Source: Malacoraja senta
Lineage: Eukaryota
DNA: 64,000 nucleotides
Direction of reading: 5' to 3'
Assembly (NCBI GenBank): GCA_038087875.1
Contig: CM075987.1
Location: 21,888,001-21,952,000, forward strand
This document shows positions 4,210-56,483 of this stretch, piece by piece. The notes under the pieces are model-generated. The model saw nothing but the letters and a program-made list of their open reading frames with translations, made no database searches and was not told the origin of the DNA. Each line of letters starts with the position of its first letter. Within the stretch, counting starts at the first letter, position 1. A program made the translations under genes and the position numbers.

Positions 4210-4520
4210 GCTCTTTCTGTCCTGGGCCTCCTCCGTGGCCAGAGTGAGTCCCACTACAAACTGGAGGAGCAGCACCTCATATTTCGCTTGGGCAGTTTAC
4301 ACCCCAGTGGAATGAACATTGGCTTCTCCAATTTCAATTGCTTTCTCCCTCCTTTCCCTCCCCTTCCCAGCTCTCCCACAGCCTACTGTCTCCGCCTCTT
4401 CCTTTCTTCTTCCCACCCACATCAGTCTGAAGAAGGGTCTCGACCCGAAACGTCACCTATTCCTTCGCTCCATAGATGCTGCCTCACCCGCTGAGTTTCT
4501 CCAGCATTTTGTCTACCTTC
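4210..4520 (+). mobile_element. Penelope-like element 3' end (GIY-YIG C-terminal remnant plus pLTR with hammerhead motif)
   Basis: Translates VLGLL..KLEEQHLIFRLGSLHPSGMNIGFSNF, followed by a pyrimidine tract and CTGAAGAAGGGTCTCGACCCGAAACGTC. Confidence 0.8.
4427..4454 (+). ncRNA. Minimal type I hammerhead ribozyme motif
   Basis: CUGAAGA, extra A, stem II GGGUC/GACCC, GAAA, palindromic ACGU helix III, GUC cleavage triplet; helix I only about 2 bp (GU/AC). Confidence 0.65.
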
Positions 4521-5413
4521 AATTGTTCCTGATTGTTGTGCAATGATTTATCTGGGCATTGTACTACATGGAACAAACAACAGAGAAACAGACCATTCAG
4601 CTCAACGTGTCTATGCCATTACTTAAAATCCACAGGAAACTCATTCTATTCAATTGGAACTTTCCAATTTCCTTGGTGTCCTTCTGCTCCCTTTCCACTT
4701 AGACAAGACAAGACAAGACAAGACACTTATGTACTAATACAACAATAAACTAAACTAAACTAACAAAATACATGTCACATCTTTCCCAAACAGTATCAAT
4801 TCTGTGTTTTAATTTGGCAATATGATCCATATTCACTTTCGGACGTGTACATTTTTATTTAGTGACTGTCTTATATTTATAACCCATCCAGATATGGAAA
4901 CAATTTCTCTCCATCCCCACCTTCATAATTTTGATTCTCCTCTAAGTCTATTTTCTAAAGAAATAAGCCACAGCCTGTTCCATCTTCTGATAGATGCAAC
5001 ATATCAAATCTTCCTCCACTGCTTCTGAACAACTTTTGTAATTCGAAGACCAGAACAGTATTCTCTGTGGTCTAACTATTCTGTACAACATTGAATATTT
5101 TTGTATTACTCTTCCCCTCGAAATGGCCCTAATTACTTTTTATAAAACAGTGTTCTTGTTTTAGTGGTTTCTACATTTGCATCCCCATATATATTTGCTT
5201 CTCTATCCATTTAGTTTTATTAACTACCCAGGAATGGGTGTTGTTGTTACGTTGACCACAAAATTACATCTCCCTCTTTGTTATCTCAAATTTTATTTTC
5301 GAATTTGCCTTTTATATGTATATGAAATATATGTCTATGTCTTAGTGATATTGCTCCACATTGTTAGATCTCAGTTTGTTATCACCTGCAAAAGTGACAT
5401 TCTCTCTTCATGT

Positions 5414-5621
5414 GTCTAAGAAGGAACTGCAGCTGCTGGAAAATCGAAGGTAGACAAAAGTGCTGGAGAAACTCAACGGGTGCAGCAGCATCTATGGAGC
5501 GAAGGAAATAGGCAACGTTTCGGGCCGAAACGTCTGAAGAAGGGTTTCGGCCCGAAACGTTGCCTATTTCCATCGCTCCATAGATGCTGCTGCACCCGCT
5601 GAGTTTCTCCAGCACTTTTCC
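5414..5621. mobile_element. Palindromic Penelope-pLTR-derived short element
   Basis: Arms of about 73 bp (~5457-5529 / ~5543-5618); 10-bp TSD CTCTTCATGT at 5404-5413 and 5622-5631. Confidence 0.85.
5534..5561 (+). ncRNA. Hammerhead motif variant at the centre of a palindromic element
   Basis: CUGAAGA-A-GGGU-UUCG-GCCC-GAAACGUU; stem II keeps pairing through a U-G pair and a UUCG loop. Confidence 0.55.
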
Positions 5622-5737
5622 CTCTTCATGTTATGTGTCCAAACCTTCTCTGCATGTACTGAACTGCAGTGATTGCAGCTAGGATCCTGCGGGGGCATCA
5701 GTTCCCCTTTCACCTTTCTTGAAATTGGATGGAAAAA

Positions 5738-6045
5738 GGTCATAAGATCATAAGGTCATAAGTGATAGGAGTAGAATTAGGCCATTCGACCCATCAAGTC
5801 TACTCCGCCATTCAATAATGGCTGATCTATCTCTCCCTCCTAACCCCATTCTCCTGCCTTCTCCCCATAACCTGACACCCGTATTATTCAAGAATCTATC
5901 TATCGCTGCCTTAAAAATATCCACTGACTTGGCCTCCACAGCTTTCTGTGGCAAAGAAGTCCACAGATTCACCACCCTCTGACTAAAGAAATTTCTCCTC
6001 ATCTTCTTCCTAAAAGCACGTCCTTTAATTCTGAGGCTATGACCA
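5738..6045 (-). mobile_element. CR1-type LINE 3' fragment
   Basis: GHSLRIKGRAFRKKMRRNFFSQRVVNLWTSLPQKAVEAKSVDIFKAAIDRFL, the typical CR1 ORF2 C-terminus. Confidence 0.88.
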
Positions 6046-6324
6046 GGACGGGGCTCACGGCTGGTGTTCCCCATAATCAAATAGGTATGTGCCATTTGCT
6101 CTAGCAGCCTCCAGGTGCTGCATATGGTCTTGGGGACGATACATATAATTGTCTATCTATGGACGTTATTCCTTGGTGTGATTTGACACCTGGGGGTGAC
6201 CAATATACTGTATAAGAGGATGGTAGGGCAGATGGGACCAGGTTGCAGGAGGTAAGGGAATTGAGAGGAATGAACAAAGGGAGAAGTCTAGGTGGTCAGG
6301 TAAGTGTGTGCGGGAGGAGACCAC

Positions 6325-6480
6325 TGGACATGGGTACCTGATATTGGAAAATTCAATGTTCATACCAATGGGATGCAAGCTACCCAAGCAGAAAATGAGA
6401 AGTTGTTCTTCCAATTTATGTTTGGCCTCCCCATAACAATGGAGAAGGCTGAGAACAGTTAGGTCAATGTGGGAATGGAA
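6325..6480 (-). mobile_element. Penelope-like element GIY-YIG C-terminal remnant
   Basis: ORF 6166..6516 contains DLTVLSLLHCYGEAKHKLEEQLLIFCLGSLHPIGMNIEFSN, homologous to 4210-4340. Confidence 0.75.
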
Positions 6481-6729
6481 AGGATAGATAAAATAACAAG
6501 CAACCAGAAGCTCCATCTGCCCGTCATCCCCTCCCCATCTGGATTCACCTATTGCTTACCAGCTTCCATCCCATCCCACTATGTAATTCTGTATACCGGC
6601 AATCTCTCCTGTTCCCTCTCATCCCTAATTCAGGGTCATCGATTTACACCTTTAGCCTCCACAGATGTTGCTTGGCCTGATGAGTTCTTCTGTAACTGTT
6701 TTAGTGACATTGATTGAGCGTTAATTATT

Positions 6730-6783
6730 GTGGTGGAAGATTGCAACCTTCATGTGGTCCGCCCTGTTTCCACGAATGCAATC
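6730..6783 (+). ncRNA. Minimal HDV-like self-cleaving ribozyme fold
   Basis: P1 GTGGTGG/CCGCCCT (G1-U wobble, one mismatch); P2 GATTGCA/TGCAATC (7 bp perfect); P3 ACC/GGT; L3 TTCATGT; J4/2 CGAA. Order matches the HDV nested double pseudoknot. Confidence 0.75.
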
Positions 6784-6870
6784 AACCCGGCGTGCACAAT
6801 CAAATAAGATCAAATAGAACAAGTTGTCCTACAACTTTAGGCTGTGCACGCCATACACGAGAAGAAGAGG
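6730..6870 (+). mobile_element. Short non-autonomous retroelement (Vingi/Ingi-type) with 5' HDV-like ribozyme and GAA tail
   Basis: TSD GTTAATTATT(G) at 6720-6730 and 6871-6881; 3' end CCATACACGAGAAGAAG; internal perfect 10-bp inverted repeat 6789-6798 / 6843-6852. Confidence 0.75.
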
Positions 6871-7871
6871 GTTAATTATTGGTCTGGACACTGAAAATAA
6901 CTCCATGAGATGCTATTTACATCTGCATAAAAGAACATTCAATGTCTCAGTGTAACACCTCATTCAAAAGGTTGGTCTTCTCAGTAGTGTATCTCAACAT
7001 TATCTTGGCTATATTTAAGAGGGAGTTAGATGTGGCCCTTGTGGCTAAAGGGATCAGGGGGTATGGAGAGAAGGCAGGTACGGGATACTGAGTTGGATGA
7101 TCAGCCATGATCATATTGAATGGTGGTGCAGGCTCGAAGGGCCGAATGGCCTACTCCTGCACCTATTTTCTATGTATCTATGTATCTAACATTATCTCAA
7201 TTATGAACTTCTATGGACTGTGCCAAAGGATATGGGGATTTTGCACTACTATTATGGATATTAATTTGTTAATTTTTTTGTTTATTATTATATATTATAT
7301 ATATATAATATATTATTTATTACCTATTATGCTGCTGCAAGTAAAAGCTTCATTGTTCCATTGCTGGTACATATGACAATTACACACTCTTGACTCTTGA
7401 CTCAAATCTCTGGAATGAAGCACAATTTCCCTAGCCTTCTGACAAGAGGAAAAAGTGCTTCTAATTACCAGCTCAGGATTCAACGGAACACAACTGACAG
7501 CAGAGGTCTTGCTCTGGAATCATACTGTCCCACCCTGTGTGTATAAAGGGACATGCTTCAATGTACAAACACTTCTCGACTTATGCAACAGGCGACTTAC
7601 ATAAACTTGCATTTACGTTAACAATTGTTAACATAATTCAGACCCTGGTGCAATCAAGACATTTTGTAATTTCCACAACACTGTACGATCACTCAAGTTT
7701 ACATTGGAAACAAGCCGGCATACCCAGAAGGCCATGCACACAGAAAGTGCCCCAACGGTGAGACAGAACTCAAGCCAGCAATGGCGGCTCTGCTTACCCA
7801 GAAGGCCGCATACCTCAGAGAGTGCCCTGGACACATCCAGATGTCGCTGAGACAATTAATACTCTCAGTGA

Positions 7872-8004
7872 AGATAGACACAAAATGCTGAAGTAACGCT
7901 GCGGTACAGGCAGCATTCCTGGGCAGAATGCAGAGATGCTGCGTTACTCCAGCATTTTGTGTCTATCTTCGGTGCATACCAGCATCTGCAGTTCATTGTT
8001 ACAC
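7872..8004. mobile_element. Palindromic Penelope-pLTR-derived short element (internally deleted)
   Basis: 14-bp TSD AATACTCTCAGTGA at 7858-7871 and 8005-8018. Confidence 0.8.
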
Positions 8005-8280
8005 AATACTCTCAGTGAGTTATTTCGGGCAGCGGATGAAGATGGTGATGCCGACCTACGTAAAATTTGACTTACGTAAGGGTTGATGGAACATGATCCT
8101 TATGTAAGTTGGAGAGTGCCTAAATAGGAGATTTGATCTGTTTTTGAAAAGATAAAGCTTGTTCTGGTTAATACCCATTGCTCAACTAATTAACTAAAAA
8201 ATCGATTGATCTGGTCATTATTAGATCGTTGTTATTTGAGGGGCCTCTCTGTGTGTGAATTAACTGCTATGTTGTACACA

Positions 8281-8605
8281 TCTTCTTCTTGTATTTGAGG
8301 CAGCAGAAGTTATGTAACGCCCTCCAGGTGCTGTAGCCAGTTCAATGTGCTGTTGTCGAGGGCCGTGAGGTCTACCCCTCCACCAGGGAGGCGGAGGACA
8401 GCGCAGTCGAAAATGACGTGCTGCGCTGTTTGCTGGTCTGCTCCACACACGCAGGCTGCTGAAGAACGCAGCCCCCTGCGATGCATGTTGGCGTTGAACC
8501 GGCCGACCCCTGTACGGAGCCGGTTCAGGGCGACCCACCCTTTGCGGGGCAGGTCCAAGCCGGGTGGGGCTATGGTGTTCGGCGCAACAGTGAATTGCGG
8601 AGGTC
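8281..8605 (-). mobile_element. 5'-truncated Vingi/Ingi-like (I-group) LINE 3' end
   Basis: ORF end WVALNRLRTGVGRFNANMH..ACVCGADQQTAQHVIFDC..LNWLQHLEGVT* with a CCHC-like motif, then an AAGAAGAAGA tail. CpG-rich, so probably young. Clade assignment is from memory. Confidence 0.7.
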
Positions 8606-9294
8606 ACATGACAACAGTGATCAGAGCTCAGGACTATTTAAATGGCGTTAGCATTTTAGCAACTTTTGACTTGGTGAAAGGCACATTGTAAGTATAAGGT
8701 ATTTCTGTAGAGTTAAAGCAAGATAGAGACACCTGGACGACTGAGTATGCAAATCAGGATCCAGAGGCAGGATCCAGACTGACAGGTTTTGTGAGTCAGG
8801 AGGTAAGATTGCAGGTAACACAAACGATGATTCGGGACAACAATATGAAAATGATGCACAAAGTGTCAATCCTGATTTGCAATAATTGGCCAAACATTAT
8901 CAACATTCTCTATCCAACAAATCAGATAATCGCCACATACAATGGTTCACAGTATGGGCTATTTTCCTGGGAAATGACTCATTTAAACCATCAGTTAGAG
9001 TTATAGGACCACAAAGGTAATCTTCTCGACACCTGTTGGCAAAGTTATCCTAATTTTGTTTGACTGAGAACCAGTGTAAAACCCTATCGCCCAGGATGTC
9101 AACAAGGGAGGAAGGAAAGAAATGAACAAAAGACTAAAGAGAGGGAAAAAAAGATAGGTAGAGAAAAAGGAAAGAAAAGAATCTGAAAACAATAGAAGAA
9201 AATAAAATAAGCGAAGTAGCAAGCAAGAAAAAAAGAAATAAAGAAAAAAAGAAAAAAACTTACATTTAAATAGTGTATTTTGCACCCTCAGGGT

Positions 9295-11351: not shown

Positions 11352-11960
11352 TTCAAAGGTGAAAGGTTTCAAAGGTCTTTTATTGTCACGTGTACCAATT
11401 AAGGTAAAGTGATATGAGAATTACCATACAGCCACGCCAAACAAGCAACAAGACACACAACTACATAAAAGTTAACATAAACATCCACCACAGCGGATTC
11501 CCCCACATTCCTCACTGTAATGGAAGGCAATAAAGTCTAATCTTCTTCCCTCATTTATCTCCCACTGTCGGGGCAGTCGAATCATCCGTCAGGGCGATCG
11601 AAGCTTCTGCAGCCGGCGGTCGAAGCCCCCGCGTCGGGGCGATTGAAGCTCCTGCTGCTTGGGGTTCCCGATGTCGGTCTCTAACCAGAGACTGTGAGCT
11701 CCACAATGTTAAAGTCCGCAGGCACCCTGTGGTTGGAGCTCAGAGGTCGATCCCCGGCAAAGGGATCGCGGGGTCCGTGGTGGTAAGTCCACAAGCACCC
11801 GCAGTGGAACTCTCGAAGTCGGTCTCCAGCAAAGGCCGCCAACTCCTTGATGTTAGGCCGCAGCGCGGACGGAGATAAGATAAAATCGCATCTCCGTCGA
11901 GGTAAGGGATTTGAAAAAGTTTCCCTCAACCCTCTCCCCCCACCCCACACATAAAACAAT
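11352..11960 (-). mobile_element. Unclassified CpG-rich retroposon with (TTTGAAACC)n-type tail
   Basis: Closely similar to 46468-46995; internal tandem units of CGTCGGGGCGRTCGAAGCYCC; the tail repeat reads AAAGGTTTC on the + strand. Confidence 0.7.
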
Positions 11961-15888: not shown

Positions 15889-18800
15889 CTTTGGGATTAT
15901 AATAATTGGGTGTTTTTAAAGCATAGATTGATAGGTTCTTGATTAATCAGAGTGTCAAGGGTTACAGGGAGAAGGCAGGAGAATGGTGTTGAAAGGGAAA
16001 AATATAACAGCCATGATCGAATGGCAGAGCAGACTTGATGGGCTGAATGGCCAAATTCTGCTTCCATGTCTTATGGCCTTATTATAATGATTTGCCAAGA
16101 TCAATATTGCCATTCCAGTAATAACCTGGAAAAATTATTGTATCCTTTTTCCAAAAAGAAACCATGAGCATCTCTCTCTTGACTATTAGCCAACACATTA
16201 GATGTCAGCTGCGGCTGTTTGGAAGCTTTTGTAATGTTTGCTGAGGATCTCTGCTCAGTCATTTTGAAACTGTGTTAGCTTTCTGGAGGGAAGAACTAAA
16301 CATAACTAACATATCAGGCTTCCATTATCCCTGGTGCCTGCTTTGTTATTTAATAAACATAGCCTGGCCTACTTCTTGTGCTTACCTTTATAACCCTTGA
16401 TTTCCTCCATATTCCAAACATCTATCATAGAGTTTAAAGTCATACAGCATGGAAACTGGCCTTCGGCCCAACTTACTATGCTGACCAAGATGTCCCATCT
16501 AAAGCTAGTCCTTTTGCTGGTATTTGACCCATATCCCTCTTATCCATGTTATTATCTTACCCATATCTTATCCATGTTACCTGTCCAAGTGTCTTTTAAA
16601 TGCTGTTATATTACCTGGCTCAACTATTTCCTGTGGCAGCTTGTACCATCCCTCCCCTGAGTGAAAAAGGTTGCCCCACAGTGTCCTATCTTTCAATCTC
16701 AGTCTTGACTATTTTCATTGACTGAATGGTCAAATCACCCCAGGATAGAGAATTCCAAAGGTTCACGACCCAGGAGGGTAGTGGGGATGGGGTAGGTGGG
16801 TGTATGGGTTGGTGGAGGAGGGAAGGGGATGCAGGAACACATTTTGCATGTTAAAGAAACCACTTCTTATTTTATTCATGATTGGCCGACCTTAATTCCG
16901 AGACTGCAATTACTCATTTTCGAGTTTCCGACAGGGAGGAAGCAGCTTCTCTTTATCAACCTCGCCAGGACTGAGAATCATTGCATTTTGGTGTGATCCC
17001 TCCTCACTATTCTAAACCTCGGAAAATATGGACCAATTATGCCCCCAAATTTTCACTTCTTTAATTCATTTGCAGAATATTGGCTCTGCTGGCAAACTGG
17101 TATTTTAATAATATGTGGTTTGTTTATTCGAGTTAAGTTTGAGTTTACTTTATTGTCACATTTTACCGAGGTACGGTTGAAAAGCTTTTGTTGCGTGCTA
17201 ACCAGGTGGCGGAGAGACAATGCGTGATTACATCGAGAGATCCACAGTGCCTGTATGGGTAGAGGTTTAAAATAGTGGAGCCGGTTGTAACGCGCGATTG
17301 CAGATCTACTTCTGTGACTAGCACACAAAGAGTCATAGAGTGATAGAGTGATACAGTATGGAAACAGGCCCTTCGGCCCAACTTGCCCACACACTTGGGC
17401 ACCACCTTGGTGCTCTCCCTCAGACGGAAAACCTTTGTCTTCCCAGGGATTGCCCAAATTAGGAAATATTTCAAAATCAATGGGTTCAAATGTAATTTGA
17501 ACCTATAGGAAATGTGCTTTTGGTTTTGACTGCCAGTAAGGACTCTATATTTTCGGTAGAAGAGACATATCCTCCAGACCAGTGACAACAGAGCCTGGCA
17601 GTTGGTAGTGAGGCAGTGTTTGATAAAGTTTATCAGTCGGCTCCAGAATTGGGCTGTGCTCTCCCTGACCTCAGCCCAGAGGCCCTGACCTTGTGAGTGC
17701 GGGAGTTTCAGAATTTAGTCATACTTTGATTGTGTAAATTTTAATTAATAATGGTGACTTTTGCGGCCGGGAGCCAATGCTCAGGAACCCAAGGAAGCAC
17801 TTCCAGCGCAAATTCATTGATGGTTTGATGTCATGATAGGTTGCATTGAACCTGGAAGATTGAAGGGAGTGTGGGAGGAATAATCAAAGTGCTTAATATG
17901 CTGGGAAAAATAATTTTCCTCTCAAAGAGGAGTACAGATCGGTAACTTCCACTGGGTTCTAGTCTATTCGATCTCACTTCATTGGAAAATCCAGTCCAAT
18001 GAGAATTTCAAATTCATAGTTCTTGGAGAATTAGGCCATTCGGCCCATCAAGTTTACTCTGCCATTCAATCATGGCTGATCTATCTTTCCCACACATCCC
18101 CATTTTTTCTGCCTTCGCCCCATAACCCGACACCCTTGTAAATCAAGAATTTGCTGCATTTCCTCGCATGCAAGCACATCCTTCCTTAGGTAAGGGGATT
18201 AAAAATGTACACAAAATTGCAGGTATGGTTCACTGAGGCCCTGTATAATTGAAGGCTTCTTTGCACTTTTCTACGCTTATTGCAGTAACACTAATATAAT
18301 ATATGCCTTGTGATTGTTTCTGTCCACACAGGTCTCTCTGATAATCAATATCTTCTGGGCTTTTACCACCTGATGTCAACAGAAAGGAAAATGCCACTTG
18401 GGCTTAGAGAAAGAAATGATCTATTTGACAAACAACCTTTTAAATCTCAGCAGTGTAAATGTAGGGATAATGTTTCTCTGTCTGGGAATCGGGGGTGATG
18501 GTCTCACTAAAAGGAGTTGACCATTGAAAATGGGGATGTAAAGAAATCTCTCCAAAACCAAGGGGTTGAATCTTTGAAGTTCTCTCCCCAGGAAGATTTT
18601 GTAGCATTAGACACTGGGTATATTAAAGACAAAAATTGATAGAATTTTTAAGGGATCAAGCGATATGAAGTTCATGCAGAAGAGTGGTCAAAGATCAGCC
18701 ACCATCTTACTGAATGGCAGAGTGGGTGTGTGTGGTACAAAGGGTGACTCCTGCTTCAATCCTTCCTGTTCGTATTTGCTTAGAAACAAAAATTAGCAGT

Positions 18801-27535: not shown

Positions 27536-27563
27536 CTGAAGAAGGGTCTCGACCCGAAACGTC
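27536..27563 (+). ncRNA. Minimal type I hammerhead ribozyme motif (sense in MIGA2 5' intron)
   Basis: Core identical to 4427-4454. Confidence 0.65.
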
Positions 27564-44394: not shown

Positions 44395-44512
44395 GTGCGA
44401 CCAGCAAACTCGCCAAGTCCAGGCTCGCCAACGGAAGCGTGGGAAGCTGGAATAGTTCAGGAAGAGAATGAGACAGCAGAGGATTCCAATGCTGAGAACC
44501 TATATGTTATGG
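44395..44512 (+). CDS. MIGA2: MIGA2 coding exon 4 (VRPANSPSP...DSNAENLYVM)
   Basis: aaag| acceptor, G|gtacga donor; 118 nt; NAENLY motif. Confidence 0.88.
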
Positions 44513-46177
44513 GTACGAAGCTTTCATTGCAATCAAATCTTACTTTCCTATACTTGAATCAATGGACAGATGCATTAGCAGGTAGATTGGAGAGGCTGAC
44601 TTGATGATAGCGCCTAAGTATATTGTAGCTGTAACTTATTTGTTTCTGTATTAAAGGAAGAAAATAAATAATCTATTTACAATAACACATTTTTAATGTT
44701 TGGATCCTTTTTTAAACAAAAACTAGATTTGATTGCTGGACATAAACAGTGGATGAGTTCTGCTTGAATTATCATCTCTGAGTGGTTGGTTTGCTCTTTG
44801 ATCACCAGTTCATGGAAGGAAATAATTCTGCCCAGTGTGCCTGCGCCAGGTCTTTGAAAGAGCTGTTTATTTATCCCCACTCATCACACAAAATTCAATT
44901 TTCTTTTTTAACACTACACCCAATTTTCTTTAAGAAAATTGTGCTCCCACCACCAATGCACTCTAGATTATCATTACTTGGAGGAATTGTTTTTTGTCTC
45001 GCTTTGGTACATTAAAAGTTACATTAGTAGCATAAACAGAGCTATCTTCTTTAGTCTTCTTTGTAATTCAAGCCATAACCAGAGAGCCATACAGTATGAA
45101 AACAGGCTCTTCAGCCCACCTTGTCCATGCTGACCAATCTGGCATATTTGGCTAGTCCCATTTGCCTGCATTAGGCCCATTGTCCTCTTAAACCCTTCAC
45201 ATCCATATATCTGTCCAGGTTGAAGACCTCTCCAGCAAGTCAAGGGTAAGTCACGTCCGGTTTAATGTTGTATGAGCAGGTGCAGTGAGGTACAGATACA
45301 ATGAAAATCTTGCTTGCAGCAGCATTGGAGGCACACAGATTCAGACAAACACACAAAACATAAATTATGCATAAATCCCACAAGACTGGGTGGGAAGAAA
45401 GACAGCAAAAATAAAAAAACTCATTAATGCAAAAACATGCAGCTGGAAAGGAATCTATTCCACACTTTACAAGATCCGTCCTCAGCAAGACTTGTCTCCC
45501 ATTCTACTATTATTGTATTGTCCAGTCTTGAGCCCAGAATTTATAGTTAATAAACTGATTTGTTAATGCAAGGTTTCAGAATTGTTTTTCTTTCTAAATA
45601 GATGGAAACCGAAAGCATGCAGGTAACAGGCGGTTGTTTAAAGTACATGAATTATTATTTAGACATGATCTTGAATAACCAGATTGCCTGTTTGGAATCT
45701 GAGCGATCCTTTTCTTTATTCCCTGGCTGATGAGAAAAGAGACTGGGTGAAGAAAATCAATTAATGCTGCTCTCAATCCAGTGTGCTTGATTGGAACCTA
45801 AGGAACCGATTACTCTACGCTCAAGAAATAATTGAGAGAGAGCTGGATTTGGAATCTTAAGTTTTGGATTAATTGTTTGACCCTGCAAATAATATTAATT
45901 GACCATTCTTAAATTCGCAAATGCTTTACTTTGCAAAAATAAGGGCCAAAAATATGATATTATCTTATCACATGAAGCAGTTGAGGTGAATAGCATAGAT
46001 TAATTTAAACGTGGCATAGATTTGTGAATCGGGGAGAAAATAATAGAGAGGGTATGCTGGTGTAGGAAAACTAGTGGGGTGGGAGGAAGTTCAGGTGGAG
46101 CAGAAAGCACTAGTTGAACCAAATGATCCGTATCCTAATTGCATATTTTGTAATGCAGAATTCTATTCAATGATTAG

Positions 46178-46314
46178 GGATGGCGCTGTTTGAAGAAGCA
46201 TTGCAGAAGTGGGAGCTCGCTCTCACCCAGCGGCAATCGAGCTCCTCTGAAAAGGAACGGAAGAATGATCCGAAGAGCCCTGGAGCGAGTGATGGGACCG
46301 GGGATGGCTGTGAG
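46178..46314 (+). CDS. MIGA2: MIGA2 coding exon 5 (GMALFEEALQKWELAL...DGCE)
   Basis: ttag| acceptor, GAG|gtacac donor; 137 nt; FEEALQKWE motif. Confidence 0.9.
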
Positions 46315-46467
46315 GTACACACAGAAGAGGTTATTGGGTAGTGGGTGGAGGAATAAGATTGCTCTGGCAGCCAGCGCTGACTTTATGGGCCGAGGGGTCT
46401 TTCAACAACAACATGCCTGTTTTCTGATATTGTTGTCAGGGCAGGAATCCTGATTGATCCTTCTCTT

Positions 46468-46995
46468 CTTCAAAGGTTTCAAAGGTCTATTATGGTCACA
46501 TGTACCAATTAAGGTACAGTGATATGCGAATTACCACACAGCCATACGAAAAAAAAAGCAACAAGACACACAACTACATTCCTCACTGTGATGGAAGGCA
46601 AAAACATCCCATCTTCTTCCTCTTTATTCGTCGGGGCAGTCGAACCATCCGTCGGGGCGGTCGAAGTCCCCGTGTCGGGGCGGTCGAAGCTCCCACGTCG
46701 GGACGATCGAAACTCGCGTCGGGGCGGTCAAAGCTCCTGCGGCTTGGAGTTCCCGAAGTCGCTCTCTGACCAGAGACCGCGAGCTCCGTGCTTTTTTTTT
46801 TGTCCGCAAGCACCCACGGTTGGAGCTCCGAGGTTGATCCCTGGCAAAGGGATCGCGGGCTCCGCGATGTTAAAGTCCCATAGGCTCCCCGCGGTGGAGC
46901 TCTCAAAATTTGCTCTCCAGCGAAGGCCGCCAGATCCACGATGCTAGGCCGCAGTGCGGACGGAGATACGATATGGAAAATAATCACATCTCCGT
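46468..46995 (-). mobile_element. Second copy of the unclassified CpG-rich retroposon, in a MIGA2 intron
   Basis: Colinear with 11352-11900; 4-5 tandem units of about 20 bp at ~46628-46740. Confidence 0.7.
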
Positions 46996-47339
46996 ATCGC
47001 ATCTTAGTAATGAGTCTCTGTATCCTACCATAGATCAAGTTTGAGATCAACTGAGACCTTTTGTTTGTGTACTTCAGCAACTTGCTAAACAACAAATCAT
47101 TTGAACTAAAATGAACAATCGTATTGAACCAGCGGCATCTTTGACCTCTGCTTGATCACAGTCTTATATTTGGTATCAGTACCAAAACATATTACATTGA
47201 TTTATATCCCTAGATATTGTTTTGGCTTATATGGTTGGGGGTGGCTGGAAGTGGCAGCAGGGGCATGGAATTGAGATCAATTAAGTTAAAAAAACGAACT
47301 AAATATATGTAGAATCTTAAAATACAAATAATTAAACAG

Positions 47340-47454
47340 GAATCCCAAAGAAAGGAGTTTTCACAGAGGCTGGAATCCCTTCTTCATCGAGCTTACCGAC
47401 TGCAGGAAGAGTTTGGGGAGACCGTGCCTTCAAATAGCCTGCTGGCTGATTTTG
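47340..47454 (+). CDS. MIGA2: MIGA2 coding exon 6 (ESQRKEFSQRLESLLHRAYRLQEEFG...LLADF)
   Basis: aaacag| acceptor (A-rich), G|gtaagt donor; 115 nt. Confidence 0.9.
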
Positions 47455-47581
47455 GTAAGTTCCTACTCGGAAGGTGGGGAAAGAATATTCTTTTGTTACA
47501 GATTATGTCATTATAATGGTTTGTTATGGGAATTAATTGATACAGATTAGTGGACACCTTTCCAATTTTCTATTTGCCCAG

Positions 47582-47688
47582 AGTGTGTTGGTCCACTAGC
47601 TCTTCCCTATCGAGAGGACTCTGCAAGATACTATCTGGATGATGATATCACTGTGAGTTCGGAGGACTCGTTTGTTTCAGCAGCAGAG
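47582..47688 (+). CDS. MIGA2: MIGA2 coding exon 7 (..DDDITVSSEDSFVSAAE), FFAT-motif exon
   Basis: cccag| acceptor, GAG|gtgagc donor; 107 nt. Confidence 0.91.
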
Positions 47689-47721
47689 GTGAGCTTAATC
47701 TTGTTTTGTATCATGTTACTA

Positions 47722-48030
47722 TTTAGTTTAGTTCAGAGATACAGCGCAGAAACAGGCCCTTCGGCCCACTGAGTCCACACCGACCAGCAATCCCTGCACA
47801 TTAACACTATCCTAAATATACTCTGGCCAATTTACACTTATACCAAGCCAATTTACCTCCAAACCTGTATGTCTTTGGAGTGTGGGAGGAAACTGAAGAT
47901 TTTGGAGAAAACCCACGGGGAGAACGTACAAACTCCGTACAGACAGCATCCGTAGTCGGCATCGAACTCGGGTCTCCGGTGCTACAAACGCTGTAAGGCA
48001 GCAACTCTACCGCTGCGCCACTGTGCCGCA
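47722..48030 (-). mobile_element. tRNA-derived SINE (HE1/V-SINE type) just downstream of the FFAT exon
   Basis: Homologous to the 9295-9606 copy; TTTAG-repeat tail at about 47722-47735. Confidence 0.85.
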
Positions 48031-49072
48031 CCGTGAAGTGACTGTCTAATTTTGTCCACTATTTCTTTGTTCCTTGTTCTATCTCAGTTTTCTCTTTCTG
48101 TAAACTCAAGTTAGTCTTGAGCTCTGGTTGTATTTCCAAACCCTACCAAGCTGCTTTGGAAAGGCTGCAGATTATCTTTGCATTTAAATCCCTCTATGGT
48201 CTTGACCTCTTTCATTCCTCAATTGAGTTTTTTGTATCCCTTGAATTCTACCTTCTTTGTAAGTACACTAGGTCATAGCCCCACTATGTTCTTTCAGCTG
48301 CCTTGGCCCTAAACTCTGGAATTCCCCTTTGGAAACTACCTGCAGCTATCTTTCCCTGCACCCTCCATTGAGACCCTCCTGAAAGTTTACCTTTTAACCA
48401 GATTCTTAGTTACTTTCTCTAATATCTCAGCCATTTGTCGGAGTCAAGTGTCCAGGTAGCTCAACTTTTGCAGTCCATCCCCTGTTGCCTATGGTGGCTG
48501 CTTAGCTTCTTAATAAACGTGGTCCCATTATGCAAATAACTAGAAGTTTGAGTTTGACATGAACTTGGTTACCAGTCCTTCTGACAGTGGAAGTGATTTC
48601 TCTCTATGCATCAAAACACTTTGTAATTCGCCCTACCAATTTCTCTCCTACTTTGGTGGTTTTCAAGCAGAGTAATGTGCAAGTGCTGTCAGCAGAAGCT
48701 GTGTCTATTTTCTTGATCAATGCACCTCATGATCGGCTACATTTGTACACCGAGTAGTAGGCAGAAGATCTGACTTGGCCTGTGTAGTTCCTCACTGGTC
48801 ACTAATTGCCCTGCTCACATTGCACAGATACCTTTTTAAGAGCTACTCATTGTTTGGTGGAATTGAGTGCAGCAATACCAGCCTTGCGTCCGTTTATGAA
48901 ATAAACTTGAGATTCTGGTCCTCCTAAACTTGGTTAAGAATATCACTGGCTCTAGCTAACTGGACTGTTACACTGTGTTTAATGTTTGAAGGCATTATTG
49001 GTATTTCCTTTTTCCTTACTTGAAGCATTGCACCATTTCTATGTCAGCTCGTTCTACTTCAACACAGATTAT

Positions 49073-49282
49073 ATAGGAAAGAACTGCAGATGCTGGTTTA
49101 AATCGAAGGTAGACACAAAATGCTGGAATAACTCAAATGTACAGGCAGCATCTCTTGAGAGAAGGAATGGGTGATGTTTTGGGTTGAGACCCTTCTTGTG
49201 ACCCGAAACGTCACCATTCCTTCTCTCCAGAGATGCTGCCTGTCCCGCTGAGTTATTCCAGTATTTTATGTCTCTCATCACC
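49073..49282. mobile_element. Palindromic Penelope-pLTR-derived short element
   Basis: Inverted arms; 10-bp TSD CA(C/T)AGATTAT at 49063-49072 and 49283-49292. Confidence 0.75.
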
Positions 49283-49820
49283 CATAGATTATGTTGGTGA
49301 CTAAGTCTGACTGGCTGTTACCCTATCAGTCAGTACCTAATGTGTATTGATCAATGAAGAAATGTAGGTGCTGCTGGACCAGATGTTAGTGTGGATCTGT
49401 GAGTGCAGCAAGTGATGGATGCATTGAAAAATGGAAGTTAGGATACAGGTATTAAAGTTTTTGGATGAGTTCCAGTTTAAGAAGAATGAACACTAAGTGG
49501 TTGGAATGTTAATTGTTGCTCTGCAGTTACTCTACGCTCCAGAGACTACTTGCACTGAGAGGGAAAGGAAACTGCCTAAAATAAATCCTGCATTTATAAT
49601 CAATTTTGAGAAGGCCCTCTGTTGGTATATTGGGTCTGGCAGAAACTTCCAAGTCAGATTCAAATTACGATACTGCAGACTTTACCAGATAACCCTGAAC
49701 ATAGAATGACAAGCCGAGGAAGAGGAACGAAGACTCGGAAGCCTTGTGACCTATTGCATCATTGAAGTAAACATGCAAAAAAATGTTTAAATATAATTCA
49801 TGCTTCTTTTATATCTGCAG

Positions 49821-49933
49821 CTATTTGATTTTTCATTTGATGTGGAAAGATTCAAATTGTCCAGACCATCTGCTTTATACGAGGAAGCTATGAGGGTTGT
49901 TCAGGAGGACAGAGTCTCTTGCCGAACATTCAG
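49821..49933 (+). CDS. MIGA2: MIGA2 coding exon 8 (LFDFSFDVERFKLSRPSALYEEAM...VSCRTFR)
   Basis: ctgcag| acceptor, AG|gtacat donor; 113 nt, ends phase 2. Confidence 0.92.
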
Positions 49934-50764
49934 GTACATGACTTCTGTTTTCTCTGGCCGCCTTGCCTCCACCCTCTCATCTGTAAATAGTTCCTGGAAA
50001 GCAACAAATGTAGGGTGATGTCAGGACCTCTTTGGCATTCTATCACTTTGCAGTGAGTGGCAACAGGTTGCTTAACAAAATGGTTTGGAGGGATGCATTT
50101 AGAAGCTATACTACATGTTGACATTTTTGCACGTAATTGTCAGTGACATCCCTGATTGCTCCCAGGTTCAAGCTAGCACCAGAAATCCACTTTTTCTTTA
50201 CTAACATTTTCATGGCTTTCCAACCACTCTTTCCCAAACCCCTAATCCTATTTCCCCCACCATCTCCGTCATTCCTGATATATCCTCCCAAAATTCTCAT
50301 TATCCTACAATTCTGGTCATTTGTCATTTCCTGATTCCTTCACTCCACTGTTCACTCATTCACTCAGCAACCTTGATTACAAAATCTGAAGTCCCTTCCT
50401 AGATCTTTTTCTCACTCCTGCTACAAATCTCAAAATTATGTGTTTCATCCAGCAGTTAGTCAACTATTCTAAGCTGTTTTAAATAATTAAAATATTTGGT
50501 TTGGTAGATCTGATGGAAGCATCTACGACAAAGCATTCTTAACATTTGGGAATGGTATCTGCAAACACCTCTGCACAAATCTTTGTAAAATTCCGCGCAA
50601 TGTTTCACTAAATTAAAGATCCATTTAGTACACCTTCAATGTCATCAGCTGTAGCAAATTAAAGTCAAAGATCAGCAATCACTGTTCAGCAGTGGGGCTT
50701 TTCTTCAATCAGTATGTGTTTCTCGAGTCACTTTTTGCAATGCTGATGGGAATCTGTATTTCAG

Positions 50765-50837
50765 AACCGAGGTCCTGGAGTGCTACAATGATGAGGATTT
50801 CCTGGCTAAACTACATTGTGTGCGTCAGGCATTTGAG
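50765..50837 (+). CDS. MIGA2: MIGA2 coding exon 9 (TEVLECYNDEDFLAKLHCVRQAFE)
   Basis: tttcag| acceptor, GAG|gtaatg donor; 73 nt; DFLAKLHCVRQAF motif. Confidence 0.95.
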
Positions 50838-51254
50838 GTAATGTTGATGAGACTGCTGAATGGGTGAAGGAGAAAAGTCCTGTAGTAATTTGCCAACGTA
50901 AACTTCCCCAAAACTTGTAATAAAATACGCTTCGCTTCATCTGCTTAATGACTGTGAAGAAGTGGACCATTAGAGGGCTTTTAAAGTTTTTAGCTCTTGT
51001 TGCATATTTCTTAATCATGTTCCTTGTTCCACTCCTCTGAGGCAATTCGAGAAATGAAAGTTAAGCATGACTTAATCAAAGACTTTGCAATCTTTCAGAT
51101 TGATGTTTACTTCGATGGACATGGAATGGATGCTTCCCATTGCAGAAACTAGAGTGTCACTAAAGCTCATTAAAATAATTCGGGAGAAGTGTGCTTGTGG
51201 ATTTCAATACCATTTAGTGGTGGAGGGCTATAACAAATGTCAAAATGTCTAACA

Positions 51255-51890
51255 TTTCTGCCAGCTACGATGTGATTCCACTGCCAGTTACATCTTCCCC
51301 TCCCGACCCTTTGTGCTTTCTGCAGGGACTTTCGTGACACCCTGGTTTGCTCCTTCGTACCTCCCCAGGCACTTTCCCCTGTGGAAGTGTGACACCTGTC
51401 CCTAGACTTCCTAGCTAACCACCATCCAGAGACTCAAACAGTGTTCAGCCAGTTAAATTTTCCTTCCAGTTCCCATATCGAGTGTTCTGTCCTTGGCCTC
51501 CTCCACTGCTAGGGTGAGAATAGCACCTTCATATTCTAGCTGGGTAGTCTACTGCCCAACAGTATGATCATGGAATTTTCCAATTTCAGGTAACTGCACT
51601 CCTCCTTTATCTCTCTTCCTATCTGCGCCACTCCCCTCTCACACCCATTACCCACCTTGCTCCCCCAGTCCTCTTACACCCTGTTTCTTTTCCCTCCTCC
51701 CGCACACATTTCTCACTGGATCCCCTGCTTACCGTTCACCTCCCATTGTTCCCAACTTCCACCACCCCTCATTCAGTTCCTTTCATCACCTTCCTTTCCT
51801 ATTGGATTTCAGAATCTGCGGCCTTTTGTTCTCCACTTATCCCCTGCCAACCTCTGTTGCTGTCTCAAACCTTCCATCCCCCACCTGAAG
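51255..51890 (+). mobile_element. Degenerate Penelope-like element remnant
   Basis: TCTGTCCTTGGCCTCCTCCACTG...GGAATTTTCCAATTTCAG is homologous to 4210-4340 and is followed by a C/T-rich tail. Confidence 0.6.
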
Positions 51891-52123
51891 AAACCTAAGG
51901 AGAATGTTACTTTTGCCGAAAGAAAAACATTACTTTTAAAGAAAACTTGTTTCAATCTCGGGAGCTATGAACTGTAAGGCGCTTATTTTTCTTGCCTTTT
52001 CTGGATCTAGGTATCACTGTTTGTTTTTTCTCTCATTGTGTTACACGGTGGAGTTGGCAGCATTATCTGCATGGAGAATATTCAGTTTCAACTTCTAATA
52101 AAACATTCCTTTTTTCTCCACAG

Positions 52124-52210
52124 ACATTACTACAAGAAGAGGAAAATAGACTATACTTCAGTGAAATTGGAAAGCAGATGATCACAGGACTGATGTCAAC
52201 TGCAGGAAAG
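52124..52210 (+). CDS. MIGA2: MIGA2 coding exon 10 (TLLQEEENRLYFSEIGKQMITGLMSTAGK)
   Basis: Pyrimidine tract and cacag| acceptor, AAG|gttaaa donor; 87 nt. Confidence 0.92.
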
Positions 52211-53274
52211 GTTAAAGAATTGTTTCACCACCCCCTTGCCCTTGTCTCCTCCCCCCCCCACCTCCTCCACCATGTATCTTCATCAACATTCTCTTCAGCC
52301 TCTCCCCCCCCCCACTGAATAGTATTTAATTTGTACCCAGTGTCTATAGATAGATAATAATATGAACATATCTGGTTATCCTTCTGCCATCTAACTATTG
52401 TGACGATAGAACCAATTCATGTAGTGCAGTCTAGGAGGGTATTCTGTAGAGGAGGAGACTGTTGTACTGAAAAGGTTGGGGCACAGGGTCCAAAATGTCC
52501 TGAGATACATAGCTAGAAGACTGGTCATGACATTGTTTGCTGCATATGGAAATGAGTGATTTAGTTTGTAGTATTGTATGTAAGGAAATGTATGACAGAT
52601 AATGTGTCATTTACTGGTGGTGGTGGTGAAGAGGTGAATGGAGTGTGAGGTACTTCCCTGAGTTACATTGGGAAGTATGAACATGCTTCTGAACGTAAGA
52701 TGTCCAAAATTATTGGAACCACCCTGCCCAAAAGAATATCAAAAGAGGACATGATATTGTAACTGTGTTCTACTGCTGGCTTGTAATGGCTGGGGAGGAG
52801 AAGGAAGTCCTGACCATTATGCATTGGCTCGAGTATCAGGAATAGAGAGTATATAGCTTATGATCTGGGTTTGTCACAACTATGCAAAAAATATATAAAT
52901 ATGCTAAATATGTAGTTTGTTAAGTAAGGTGGGATCTATTGGACATCTGATTTCAAGGGAACTATAGTTTGGGAGGTTGTTGGGGGAGCAATTCAAATCT
53001 TTACCAAGGGAAATTTAATTTTAGAATTTTGCAATACGGAATGAGATTGTTCAACTCATTCTGCCTTCTCTTTGAAAGAGCTGTCTGGTCAGATCCATTC
53101 CTGGTTCTTTCTCCTTTGATCTACAATTATAAATGTCAACACGTATCCCCTTTGGTTTGAAAGTTATTATTGAATCATCTTCTACCACTATTTAAGACCA
53201 AATGATAACTTGTTTTTCTAAACAATCTTTTCTGGCCCTGTTGCTATATTCTTTCATGGAACATACAACTGTTA

Positions 53275-53900
53275 GCAGAGGAACAGACCTTTCAGCCCAC
53301 AGTGTCTGTGCCGAACATGATGCCAAATTAAACTAATCCCTTCTGCCTCGACATGATCCGTATCCCTCCATTCCTTGCATATTCATGTGCCTTGCTATAA
53401 GCCTCTTGAATGCCAATGTTGTACCTCCATCCACCACCACCCCCAGCAGCGTGCTCCAGGCACCTCCCATTCTTGGTGTAAACAAAAAACATGCACCACA
53501 CATCTCCTTTGATCTTTCTCCCTCTCACCTTAAAGCTATGCCCTCTAGTATTTGACATTTGAAAACTGAGGGAAAGGTTCTGACTGTCTACCCTATCTAT
53601 GCCTCTCATTTTATAAACTAATCAGGTCTCCCCTCAGCCTCTGACGCTCCAGAGAAAAAAGTCCAACCTCTCCTTGTAGCTAGTGCCTTCTAATCCAGAC
53701 AGCATTCAGGTAAACCTCTGCATCTTTACAGTCATGGGGTGACCAGAACTGCAAACAATACTTCAAACGTGGCCCAACCAAAGTTTTATAAAGCTGAAAC
53801 ATAACTTATTGACTCTTGTGCTTGGTGCCACGACCCATGAAGGCAAGCATACCATATGCCTTTTTACCATTCTTTCTATATGTGTTGTTATTTTCAGGGA
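53275..53900 (-). mobile_element. CR1-type LINE 3' fragment
   Basis: MRGIDRVDSQNL..SNTRGHSFKVRG on the minus strand and the shared tail. Further short CR1 ends lie at about 7005-7175, 12330-12485, 15083-15485, 15920-16085, 16430-16690, 18030-18150, 22400-22680, 25825-26080, 27160-27340, 27995-28140, 29370-29520, 31890-32070 and 34040-34180. Confidence 0.8.
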
Positions 53901-53914
53901 ACTATGGATTTTTA

Positions 53915-54160
53915 TTGTGTAGGAAAGAACTGCAGATGCTGGTTTAAATTGAAGGTAGACACAAAATGCTGGAGTAACTCAGCGGGACAGGCAGCATCAC
54001 TGGAGAGAAAGAATGGGTGACGTTTCGGGTCGAGACCCTTCTTCAAACTGAAGAACTGAAGACTGAATCTGAGGAAGGATCTAGACCCGAAACATCACCC
54101 ATTCCTTCTCTCCTTAGATGCTGCCTGTCCCGCTGAGTTACTCCAGCATTTTGTGTCTAC
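53915..54160. mobile_element. Palindromic Penelope-pLTR-derived short element with two opposed degenerate hammerhead cores
   Basis: Arms of about 90 bp; 13-bp TSD CTATGGATTTTTA at 53902-53914 and 54161-54173. Confidence 0.85.
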
Positions 54161-54369
54161 CTATGGATTTTTACTCTTTGATTCTTCTGTACATTTGATA
54201 TTTATATATTTTTAAATTATATTTATGATATTTCCTTTTGATATTTAATCAAAACGCAACATAACCTCTTAATCAGGTGAACTGAAGAAATTAAAAATAA
54301 TTAAGTTGCTGGGGTTTTGATTTTTCCAATTTGGTGTCGTACAGGCACTCATTCTAGTTTTATAAGTCA

Positions 54370-55428
54370 TCTCTATACATAAAACTCTGATCTTGGATGT
54401 GTATTTATTTGTGTGTTTGTGTGTAATCACATCTTTGCGAAAAAACAACGCAGTAACGGTAAACAATCTACATATTCCGGTAGAGATTTTTCCCTTGGAG
54501 TCCAAACTCGCCTCATCTGAAAATTGCATGCTTTATTTCTCGAGTTATTACTGAAAATGTTCAAAAATCTGACAAAACTTTGAATTTAAAAACGAATGTC
54601 TTTCGCTAATGACGTCACAATGGCTCTGCTCCCTGTGCCGTTCTTCCTCGCGCTGCGGGTGACGTCACCCCCCCGACCCCTCCCCCCCCTCCCAGTTATT
54701 CAAAAGACTCGGCTGGCTCGCTCGGCTCTTCGGCTGCTCGGCTCGGCTCGCTCGGCTGCTTGGATATTTTCTTACGTTGCTTTTATTGTAGATAAGCTTC
54801 CGATTAAAGTTCATTTTTCTGCTTTAACTTCGAAAATGTTAATACATTAATGTTGCATTTATTGTTCTTTAAAGACTTCCCGGTTTTTCACTTAATTGAA
54901 CTAATTCTTAAAGGTAACATTTAATTTCAAAGACAGCGGATTTCTTAGCGATTTCCACGCTTTTTGACTTTTAAAATATTTTCTTACGTTGCTTTTCCCC
55001 GTTTTTTACTTCCCGGTTTTTCACTTCATTGATTTTTGACATCTTTCAAAAGACCACGATTTTTGACAGCTTTCAAAAAACTTTGCAGTTGATTTATTTT
55101 TGTGATTACTGTTTCAATAATACTTAGAACATTTTAATACATTAACGCTCGGGTCCGGTCCTCTCTGGAGGAGAGAGTCCTCTCTATGCCTCTGCCCTCT
55201 CTGTGCCTCTGCCCTCTCTGTGCCTCTGATCTCTCTCTCTCTCTCTCTACACCCCTCTCTAGCCGCACATGTGAGTTGGGGGCTATGAGTGAGTGGATAG
55301 GGCGGGGGATGGGGTAAAAGGACCGAATGAATAATATCAAAGGGGGTGGTTAGTGTGTGTGACACCACAGCCCCCCCCCCTGCAACCGCGCATTGAAGGG
55401 GCGGGACCCAACGGGTCCCACGGTCTAG
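54370..55428 (+). mobile_element. Non-autonomous Helitron-like element in a MIGA2 intron
   Basis: A|TCTCTATACATAAAA 5' end followed by GTTT/GTGT-rich sequence. 3' hairpin GGGACCC-AAC-GGGTCCC (55403-55419) then CTAG|T (55425-55428). No TSD; internal duplications. Confidence 0.7.
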
Positions 55429-55710
55429 TAAGAGTTAAAATTGCAAGTGGTAAGCACGGAAGCAGCAAATTCCAGCCACTGTTCCTCTGTTTCTATAAAT
55501 CTATCCCAAAGTAGAAGGAAAACTCTGTCTTGCTGCCAGAGTATCTCTACTCCAAGTAGGCATTTATGTTCAACTGAGTGCAATGTTGGTTTGAAAGGTG
55601 GCATAGTTAAACTGCTTCAAGAAAGAGGTAACGGTGGGAAGGAATCTGAGTATCCATCACTGATGTAAGAAATAATCACATTGGTTCTTGTCTGCCTTTA
55701 TCATTTACAG

Positions 55711-55809
55711 AATGTAAATAGATTTCATGAGACCTACAAAGAAATGTTGCACCATGCACGAAGAGAAGAAACCTGGGAGACGACAGAGCGGGAACTCAAG
55801 GGACGAGGG
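55711..55809 (+). CDS. MIGA2: MIGA2 coding exon 11 (NVNRFHETYKEML...ETWETTERELKGRG)
   Basis: ttacag| acceptor, GGG|gtagat donor; 99 nt. Confidence 0.92.
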
Positions 55810-56391
55810 GTAGATATTGAGATTATTTCACATTTGCGTGGGGGAGGATGAAGAAGTAAACTATCGTTGTATTGTCATGATGTTTTTCATTTGCTTTACT
55901 AGCCTTGACGTTTTACAATACAAGTTCCCATCAACGCACCATCGAGGCAAATCACCTGCATCAGGATGAAACAAATGCTGGAGGTACTCACCCAGTCAGG
56001 CTACATCCATGGAGAGGGGAACAAAATTAACGTTTCAGGTCAACAGCCTTTCATTGTAACTGGAAAAGTGAGAAAACAAGTTATTTTATGTTGACAGGGG
56101 AGAGAAAACATCTGAGAACGGGTGTAGACAAAGACTGTCCAGGAACACGCATGCTGTTAAGGCCATCTAAGAAAGGGTGATAAATGATTGTTGATTTTAG
56201 CTGATCTGCCTAGTGGAGTGTAAATGACGGAGATGAGTAAGCGCTGTGCTGGAATTGTGTTGTTGGAAACAGGAAATGTCAGAATTATGGAAATGTTCAG
56301 CAAGGCGGGCAGCATCTGTGGAAAGAGGAAAAACAAAGATAATGTTGTAAGTGGATGACCTTGCATCTTTTGTAGGTGAATGATCTTGTAT

Positions 56392-56483
56392 CTGAAGAAG
56401 GGTCTCGACACGAAACGTCGTCTATTTCCTTCGCTCCATAGATGCTGCCTCACTCGCTGAGTTTCTCCAGCATTTTTGTCTAC
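56392..56483 (+). mobile_element. Single-arm pLTR copy starting at the hammerhead CUGA box
   Basis: CTGAAGAAGGGTCTCGACACGAAACGTC at 56392-56419; CTTGTATCT duplicated at 56385-56393 and 56484-56492. Confidence 0.7.

Follow-up and report, generated by a model that had tools for sequence, protein, structure and literature searches.

Penelope-like elements (PLEs) are bounded by pseudo-long terminal repeats (pLTRs) in direct or inverted order, with an optional 30–40-bp tail at one end and a target-site duplication (TSD), as set out in PMC3846280 among other sources; the optional tail has been traced to two reverse transcriptase (RT) start sites (Frangieh et al. 2024, PMC11167929). The minimal hammerheads that PLEs carry were described in 2014; their published descriptor (Cervera and De la Peña 2014, PMC4209133) demands a helix I of at least 3 bp. 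By our count, Fig. S3 of that paper gives such a helix in 50 of 56 motifs, the other six having 2 bp of G-C only, and there is no chondrichthyan among the 56. The Anolis PLE hammerhead is described in PMC11167929 as protein-assisted and dispensable for insertion in vitro, with no RNA-seq ends found at its site. Here we describe a repeat family carrying a motif of this kind in 64,000 nucleotides of the skate Malacoraja senta (contig CM075987.1, positions 21,888,001 to 21,952,000 of the forward strand; hereafter the window, with positions counted from its first letter). The motif is probably the minimal hammerhead of a chondrichthyan Neptune-type PLE, passively multiplied as the head of short 5'-truncated retrocopies, with the genomic copies most likely inert. 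The useful part is the anatomy of so abundant a family.

A profile built from ten hand-picked repeat copies yields 47 nhmmer matches in the window (E≤0.01), which diverge from the window consensus by a median of 15% (range 4–33%). The hammerhead core is covered by 25 of the 47 pieces, one core per 2.6 kb, and forms the head of a longer repeat of ~100–135 bp. Arrangement was analyzed with the 44 pieces with E<1e-5, conservation with the 25 core-covering pieces, and pairing with 22 ungapped ones. Ten sites in the window lie within three mismatches of the 28-mer core, against none in 100 shuffles. The initial annotation had named two intact copies, at 4427 and 27536, four variants and six degenerate copies; all of the variants and degenerate copies are present, and the two intact copies are identical in sequence. 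That they are intact ribozymes is not borne out, helix I being only 2 bp. The copies and insertions are as follows.

4427–4454, plus strand: hammerhead core with a 4-bp helix II and tetraloop, C15.2-G16.2 and GUC; putative cleavage after 4454; helix I formed only by 4425–4426 with 4455–4456
27536–27563, plus strand: second, identical core, inside a full ~135-bp unit (27532–27666) with a pyrimidine tract of ~25 nt upstream
5534–5561, plus strand: core with a GUU triplet and a helix II containing G.U, inside a head-to-head palindrome (5413–5627) with a 10-bp TSD
29691–29718, plus strand: core with C15.2>G, the helix III palindrome lost; right arm of a palindrome (29615–29820) with a 10-bp TSD
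33068–33095, plus strand: solo copy with C11.1>A, the closing pair of helix II lost
56392–56419, plus strand: solo sense copy in a MIGA2 intron with a 9-bp TSD; C11.2>A breaks helix II
53916–54166, both strands: head-to-head palindromic insertion in a MIGA2 intron with a 13-bp TSD and 94 predicted base pairs; cores at 54019–54046 (minus strand, C3>T) and 54069–54096 (plus strand, G16.2>A)
49073–49279, both strands: head-to-head palindromic insertion in a MIGA2 intron with a damaged core and 81 predicted base pairs
57927–57954, plus strand: decayed sense copy in a MIGA2 intron with G12>A and G16.2>A
58881–58908, plus strand: decayed sense copy in a MIGA2 intron with G12>A and an 11-bp TSD
26258–26285, minus strand: decayed copy with U4>C and G12>A
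20039–20242, both strands: palindromic insertion with a 13-bp TSD; core at 20135–20162 on the minus strand, helix II broken

The 25-copy consensus consists of CUGAAGA, an extra A, G10.1-C11.1, a 4-bp helix II with a tetraloop, GAAA, the palindromic C15.2-G16.2, and GUC, bearing out the earlier assignment to the minimal type I hammerheads; the core CUGANGA ... GAAA-N-N-UH is present in this consensus and in four individual copies. The extra nucleotide between A9 and G10.1 is A in 24 of 25 copies, and G10.1-C11.1 is G-C or G.U in 20 of 22. At the palindromic pair, C15.2 is kept in 18 and G16.2 in 19 of 25 copies, the losses being mostly CpG transitions. Helix II lies within the published range of 3–7 bp with a 3–10-nt loop and has no two-sided changes. 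It had previously been drawn with 5 bp and a 2-nt loop, a sterically implausible geometry that we replace with 4 bp and the tetraloop. The proposed GGGTTTCGGCCC subfamily also dissolves: it is confined to the two arms of one insertion (5413–5627), and the variant introduces G.U wobbles and no compensatory change.

Helix I is the weak part of the motif. U2.1-A1.1 pairs in 21 of 22 copies and G2.2-C1.2 in 13, and the third position (2.3-1.3) is A.C, unpaired in 19. Implemented exactly, the published descriptor has no match in the window; relaxed to a 2-bp helix I it has four (4427, 5534, 27536 and 29691), and none of these four, which meet the rest of the descriptor, reaches 3 bp. This makes the motif an atypical variant of the minimal hammerhead and not a different kind, because PMC4209133 also includes 2-bp G-C variants that were identified manually. 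The core, helix II and the 15.2-16.2 pair are all kept in only three of 25 copies (4427, 27536 and 5534), and the 5534 copy is locked in a long hairpin. Rfam covariance models give no hammerhead family among ten matches up to E=1; the matches on the palindromes are to microRNA hairpin models below their gathering scores, artefacts of the long hairpins that the palindromes form.

The repeat is the 3' end, or pLTR, of a PLE, probably of Neptune type, as the initial annotation had proposed in calling it Penelope-derived; the GIY-YIG remnant, palindromes, TSDs and tail all support this origin. The parts of the element found outside the core are as follows.

4213–4338, plus strand: remnant of the C-terminus of a GIY-YIG endonuclease, Penelope-like and of Neptune type (4213–4335 in the survey of all three remnants)
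3947–4081, minus strand: inverted pLTR copy with tail, on the 5' side of the truncated element 3947–4523
4339–4426, plus strand: pyrimidine tract whose last bases, CAG|T, immediately precede C3, where TCAGTCT reads as a 3' splice site or an initiator; the family-wide 5' boundary is at 4422–4426
6343–6513, minus strand: older PLE GIY-YIG remnant with a donor-like CAG|GTA at the stop of its open reading frame (ORF), then a pyrimidine tract
51441–51587, plus strand: older PLE GIY-YIG remnant with the same donor-like CAG|GTA at the ORF stop, then a pyrimidine tract

The remnant ahead of 4427, correctly recognized before, matches at 66–78% identity, best to Leucoraja erinacea proteins. Homologues of the window remnants are proteins with a PLE-type RT, CX4-5CX2C and GIY-YIG; their Pfam GIY-YIG scores are 17–22 bits, below the curated cut-off of 22.6, and Pfam gives no match on the window's own GIY-YIG remnants. 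[quoted passage not shown] The zebra-shark protein P0032 continues past the ORF end into SLMKGLRPKRQL and resembles the window frame SLKKGLDPKRHL over the core, with a BLAST E of 0.02 that is only a hint. With the order inverted pLTR with tail, truncated endonuclease, pyrimidine tract and pLTR, 3947–4523 is a textbook 5'-truncated PLE. Viral and metagenome contigs gave no hits in motif scans and no confirmed locus in protein-based searches.

Two further observations concern the endonuclease remnants. A CTGAAGAA start at 51887–51911 (plus strand), ~300 bp past the third remnant, may be a hammerhead from an older family in an advanced state of decay. The annotated proteins P0001–P0003 end in the tail of this PLE endonuclease, fused to another RT, DUF4518 and a seven-transmembrane receptor; these fusions may be gene-model artefacts or exonisation of the repeat.

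The copies are arranged as expected for PLE insertions. Twenty neighboring pairs lie less than 500 bp apart, 16 head-to-head, three tail-to-tail and one tandem. TSDs of 10–14 bp flank six of nine abutting palindromes tested, and TSDs of at least 9 bp flank nine of 18 units tested, against three of 400 random intervals. The arms of the palindromes end near model position 100 on one side and 135 on the other, giving two 3' ends ~35 bp apart, and the ~35-bp tail is on one arm only in all ten abutting palindromes and in 12 of 16 head-to-head pairs, which the two RT start sites of PMC11167929 explain. The center of the 53916–54166 palindrome (54040–54075) holds several short, staggered repeats of the motif's first bases, which suggests repeated template jumps at the 5' boundary.

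To gauge the family across the genome, contigs from four public runs, drawn from two organisms and two studies, were placed on 4140–4560 at 80% likeness, and 100,000–188,000 contigs fit per run. Summed depth on the core is 10–20 times that of the pyrimidine tract and 5–6 times that of the GIY-YIG part, although part of the drop from core to pyrimidine tract is due to subfamilies with another upstream tract. Relative to unique-flank depth this amounts to 0.6–1.1 x 10^5 with a 31-fold correction for overlapping words, or 2–3 x 10^6 without it. Contig depth is not copy number, and 10^5 or more genomic copies is a reasonable order-of-magnitude figure. The description as a very large ribozyme-motif family is therefore right as to a very high copy number and overstated as to ribozymes, with helix I below the published minimum, 22 of 25 core-bearing copies damaged, and copies that span the cleavage site.

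The 5' boundary is sharp. Of the six 5' loose ends listed per run, those at the top in all four are 4422, 4424 and 4425, and none is at the cleavage site, 4455. Unrelated AT-rich flanks start at 4424/4425 in all four runs. In the window, copies mostly begin 1–5 nt before CUGA, and the letters upstream of the core are T in 24 of 25 copies at -1, fading to near background by -6. Among the 47 pieces, 35 span the cleavage site, two start within 2 nt of it, and 25 start at the head. As the copies read through the GUC site, they would derive from uncleaved RNA. TCAGTCT fits the initiator consensus with +1 at 4424; Penelope has an internal TATA-less promoter (PMC2377424). G is the last loose letter before 4424 in three of four runs, possibly a copied cap but too weak for use. 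The boundary sequence TCAG-T-CTGA is itself briefly palindromic; in rotifer PLEs, inverted junctions are known to carry palindromes (PMC3846280). A scan of the whole window for TCAGWCTGA with one mismatch is at chance level (19 against 18.7).

Intron signals flank the same boundary, with a donor-like site in two of three remnants and an acceptor-like site before CUGA, and there is no spliced joint among the best 15 of 275 listed. Splicing as a rescue of helix I was rejected, save with a different donor, since the donor-like sites of the two older remnants end in CAG and spliced RNA would retain the A.C mismatch.

We propose that the PLE protein would make a staggered break of 7–14 bp in target DNA, with cDNA primed on one or both break ends at two internal RNA start sites. 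Uncleaved RNA would be copied through the GUC site, the cDNA usually stopping 1–5 nt 5' of CUGA, and joining of two cDNAs head to head would yield the palindromes. Once inserted, copies would decay, fastest at the CpGs (C11.1/G12 and C15.2/G16.2). Genomic copies, including those in MIGA2 introns, most likely do not cleave, because helix I is 2 bp, the monomer has no helix III, and a same-strand partner is rarely near. Cleavage in the master element, if it takes place, would depend on dimerization or on the protein that the element encodes, and whether the master hammerhead cleaves at all seems to us close to an even question, leaning slightly to the negative. A family whose copies begin at the ribozyme and continue beyond its cleavage site speaks for PLE cDNA being made without a cleavage step. 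A wider reading, put forward as a conjecture that we rate as rather unlikely, is that a skate Penelope pLTR fragment has turned into a SINE-like (short interspersed nuclear element) unit of ~135 bp with at least 10^5 copies, its 5' end fixed at the helix I strand by a start site or splice acceptor and two RT start sites setting its 3' ends, that the ribozyme, at the very 5' end and with a 2-bp helix I, folds only inside the PLE ribonucleoprotein or is repurposed, and that the long- and short-armed palindromes are a fossil record of two-ended priming with different start sites. What is unusual about the element is only its weak helix I and its sharply defined 5' boundary, an initiator or a splice acceptor.

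The pattern of change within the motif largely follows CpG decay. The suggested check on helix II covariation returned nothing: none of five pairs is changed on both sides, and no measure exceeds shuffles. G12, a catalytic base, and G16.2 sit in CpGs and decay like other CpGs (changed in 7/25 and 6/25 copies); G12>A is present in 7/25 window copies and at 12–14% of depth genome-wide in the public-run contigs, where A1.1>G is at 10–13%. No variant that repairs the A.C mismatch is among the best 40 of 67 variants listed for the two organisms. Four subfamily consensuses keep all 11 core positions, the extra A and G10.1-C11.1, CpG decay aside. Across subfamilies, one of 11 core columns is variable (G12, a CpG) versus 14 of 54 flank columns, or two of 42 without the clustering columns; this comparison is uninformative because it is circular, the columns having been used for clustering.

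Several observations weigh against a purely passive history. Non-CpG core cells match the consensus in 226 of 249 cases versus 1072 of 1273 in the 3' flank (91% and 84%), with a cell-wise Fisher p of 0.006 for cells that are not independent, a per-column Mann-Whitney p of 0.11, and a p of 0.32 when the comparison is with the flank's best-conserved block. Genome-wide, among the best 40 of 67 variants listed, those within 4427–4454 are CpG transitions only (9–15%), and 4455–4489 has several common non-CpG subfamily variants. As the core looks better conserved than the flank, by an equivocal test, and its listed variants are confined to CpGs, selection may have preserved the motif in master elements. 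Changes at 1.1 and 1.2 mostly preserve G.U pairs, though they are also the commonest mutations, and Drosophila PLE hammerheads too have a 2-bp helix I, of two G-C pairs (PMC4209133). Lastly, folding argues less for inertness than it might: ViennaRNA gives helix I a pair probability below 0.05 in every context tried and low values for the active pairs in native context, and the predicted co-fold of two copies is not a dimeric hammerhead, but the run had no active minimal hammerhead as control and is hence weak.

One alternative is an active ribozyme family, many of whose copies would form cis or trans dimers that cleave, perhaps with protein assistance, and process host pre-mRNAs such as that of MIGA2. 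The complete core consensus with A9.1, G10.1-C11.1 and palindromic C15.2-G16.2, like that of published minimal hammerheads, fits such activity, as do the slightly higher conservation of the core than of the flank, a copy number so high that some intact copies must be transcribed, and the reported dimer cleavage of PLE hammerheads (PMC4209133, PMC6765202). The 2-bp helix I and a two-copy co-fold that is not a hammerhead dimer speak the other way, same-strand close pairs number one in 20 and the second copy of that pair is damaged, palindromic copies are trapped in long hairpins, and the MIGA2 coding span has no intact core-bearing sense copy; we regard widespread cleavage as improbable. A mere chance likeness of the repeat to the hammerhead consensus is hardly credible. 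The lack of an Rfam hammerhead match up to E=1 and of covariation above shuffles would suit it, but the motif sits in the pLTR right after the PLE ORF with every idiosyncrasy of PLE minimal hammerheads, and the core descriptor matches just ten times in 100 random windows.

The ribozyme might instead be vestigial even in the master element of the lineage, helix I having degenerated and the sequence being kept as a promoter, splice-acceptor or protein-binding signal. In keeping with this, nearly all copies have the A.C at 2.3-1.3 and the rows listed for two organisms contain no compensating variant, and the 5' strand can be read both as a CAG|T following a pyrimidine tract and as the initiator-like TCAGTCT; moreover, flank blocks are conserved as well as the core, and PLE insertion in vitro is unaffected by hammerhead mutants (PMC11167929). 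Splice-site or initiator needs would not extend, however, to the 11 core positions, extra A and G10.1-C11.1 kept in four subfamily consensuses, CpG decay aside, and we hold this to be possible but somewhat unlikely. Discrete ends and huge numbers would also be explained if the ~135-bp unit were a self-standing, non-autonomous SINE-like element, re-transcribed from an initiator at A4424 and re-mobilized by the PLE protein. The excess of core depth over the pyrimidine tract and the GIY-YIG part and the AT-rich flanks from 4424/4425 in four of four runs point this way, non-autonomous PLE derivatives have been described (bioRxiv 10.64898/2026.07.22.740005), and the internal TATA-less promoter of Penelope (PMC2377424) offers a precedent. 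About half of the copies, though, hold bases 5' of the putative +1 (C-4 in 12/25, T-5 in 13/25), and the same boundary would arise if truncation favored a splice acceptor or the TCAG-T-CTGA palindrome, leaving a self-standing unit an unlikely though serious alternative to passive multiplication of PLE retrocopies.

The host gene in the right part of the window is MIGA2, outside the element.

35548–59426, plus strand: MIGA2 coding span in the window, with exon-bearing frames at 35548, 40273, 44392, 46174, 47551, 50655, 51971, 55669, 58254 and 59286

Its identity and strand, as initially annotated, are confirmed by Pfam Miga matches to eight exon-bearing frames from 40273 to 59426 (E≤0.001), with one more matching weakly, and by one exon whose best PDB match is Mitoguardin 2. 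The frame at ~35548, without a Pfam match, holds what we take, from a familiar motif, to be the ATG exon. Several copies had been placed in sense within the MIGA2 pre-mRNA, and sense cores are indeed at 41989, 54069, 56392, 57927 and 58881, but none is intact, each being broken in the core, helix II or helix III; the remaining sense pieces in the coding span are without a head, and the 27536 copy, which is intact, lies 8 kb upstream from the exon with the ATG. With all sense cores in the coding span broken, cleavage of the MIGA2 pre-mRNA would be unlikely. For the host, long intronic hairpins of 50–94 predicted pairs may be of greater consequence than the ribozyme: besides the 81 and 94 pairs of the 49073–49279 and 53916–54166 palindromes, that at 40558–40692 is predicted to form 50, and ten such palindromes within 64 kb could supply intronic double-stranded RNA in quantity for editing or small RNAs.

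Other repeats in the window include Tc1/mariner-type transposase remnants at 61196–62081 (minus strand), with helix-turn-helix (HTH) domains and a weak Sleeping Beauty HTH match, a LINE-like (long interspersed nuclear element) remnant at 8313–8603 (minus strand) with a weak zf-RVT match, and repeated GC-rich stretches of 400–550 bp at 11362–11897, 16558–16982 and 46472–46995, which have long open frames and, for the one tested, no Pfam match.

Literature searches, with most subscription papers and the repeat databases outside their coverage, gave no publication on this skate family among the papers listed, and one elasmobranch genome preprint mentions neither Penelope nor ribozymes. The closest match is to the PLE minimal hammerheads as presented in PMC4209133 (Cervera and De la Peña 2014), which the skate motif resembles in the CUGANGA core, the extra nucleotide before G10.1, G10.1-C11.1, and GAAA-C/G-UC without a helix III loop, as well as in its place in the pLTR after the RT–endonuclease ORF, the mostly solo, truncated copies, and the opposite-strand pairs 100–700 bp apart. 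It differs in its 2-bp helix I with one A-U pair and in a density far above the 4,000–9,000 per genome reported there. The Drosophila virilis Penelope pLTR also has a 2-bp helix I, but with two G-C pairs and an extended helix III (PMC4209133). In D. virilis the 3' end of a spliceosomal intron is the 5' end of helix I; in the skate, that interval lies between the donor-like CAG|GTA at the ORF stop and the pyrimidine tract with its CAG|T, although splicing of the skate pLTR is only inferred, and its predicted spliced form leaves the same CAG before U2.1.

Non-LTR retrozymes, reported in one chondrichthyan (bioRxiv 10.64898/2026.07.22.740005), are likewise short PLE-related units with type I hammerheads, but they form head-to-tail tandem arrays, whereas the skate units are solo or head-to-head, with one tandem among 20 close pairs. 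The Anolis element PAc (Frangieh et al. 2024, PMC11167929) is alike in its two RT start sites ~30–40 nt apart, which account for the optional tail, in the cutting and extension of both strands, and in its uncleaved RNA template, and the strict tail asymmetry of the skate palindromes offers a cheap genomic test of this two-start-site, two-strand model. PAc belongs to the Poseidon clade, has an annotated helix I, and has been shown to cleave with its protein, whereas the skate element is probably of the Neptune type.

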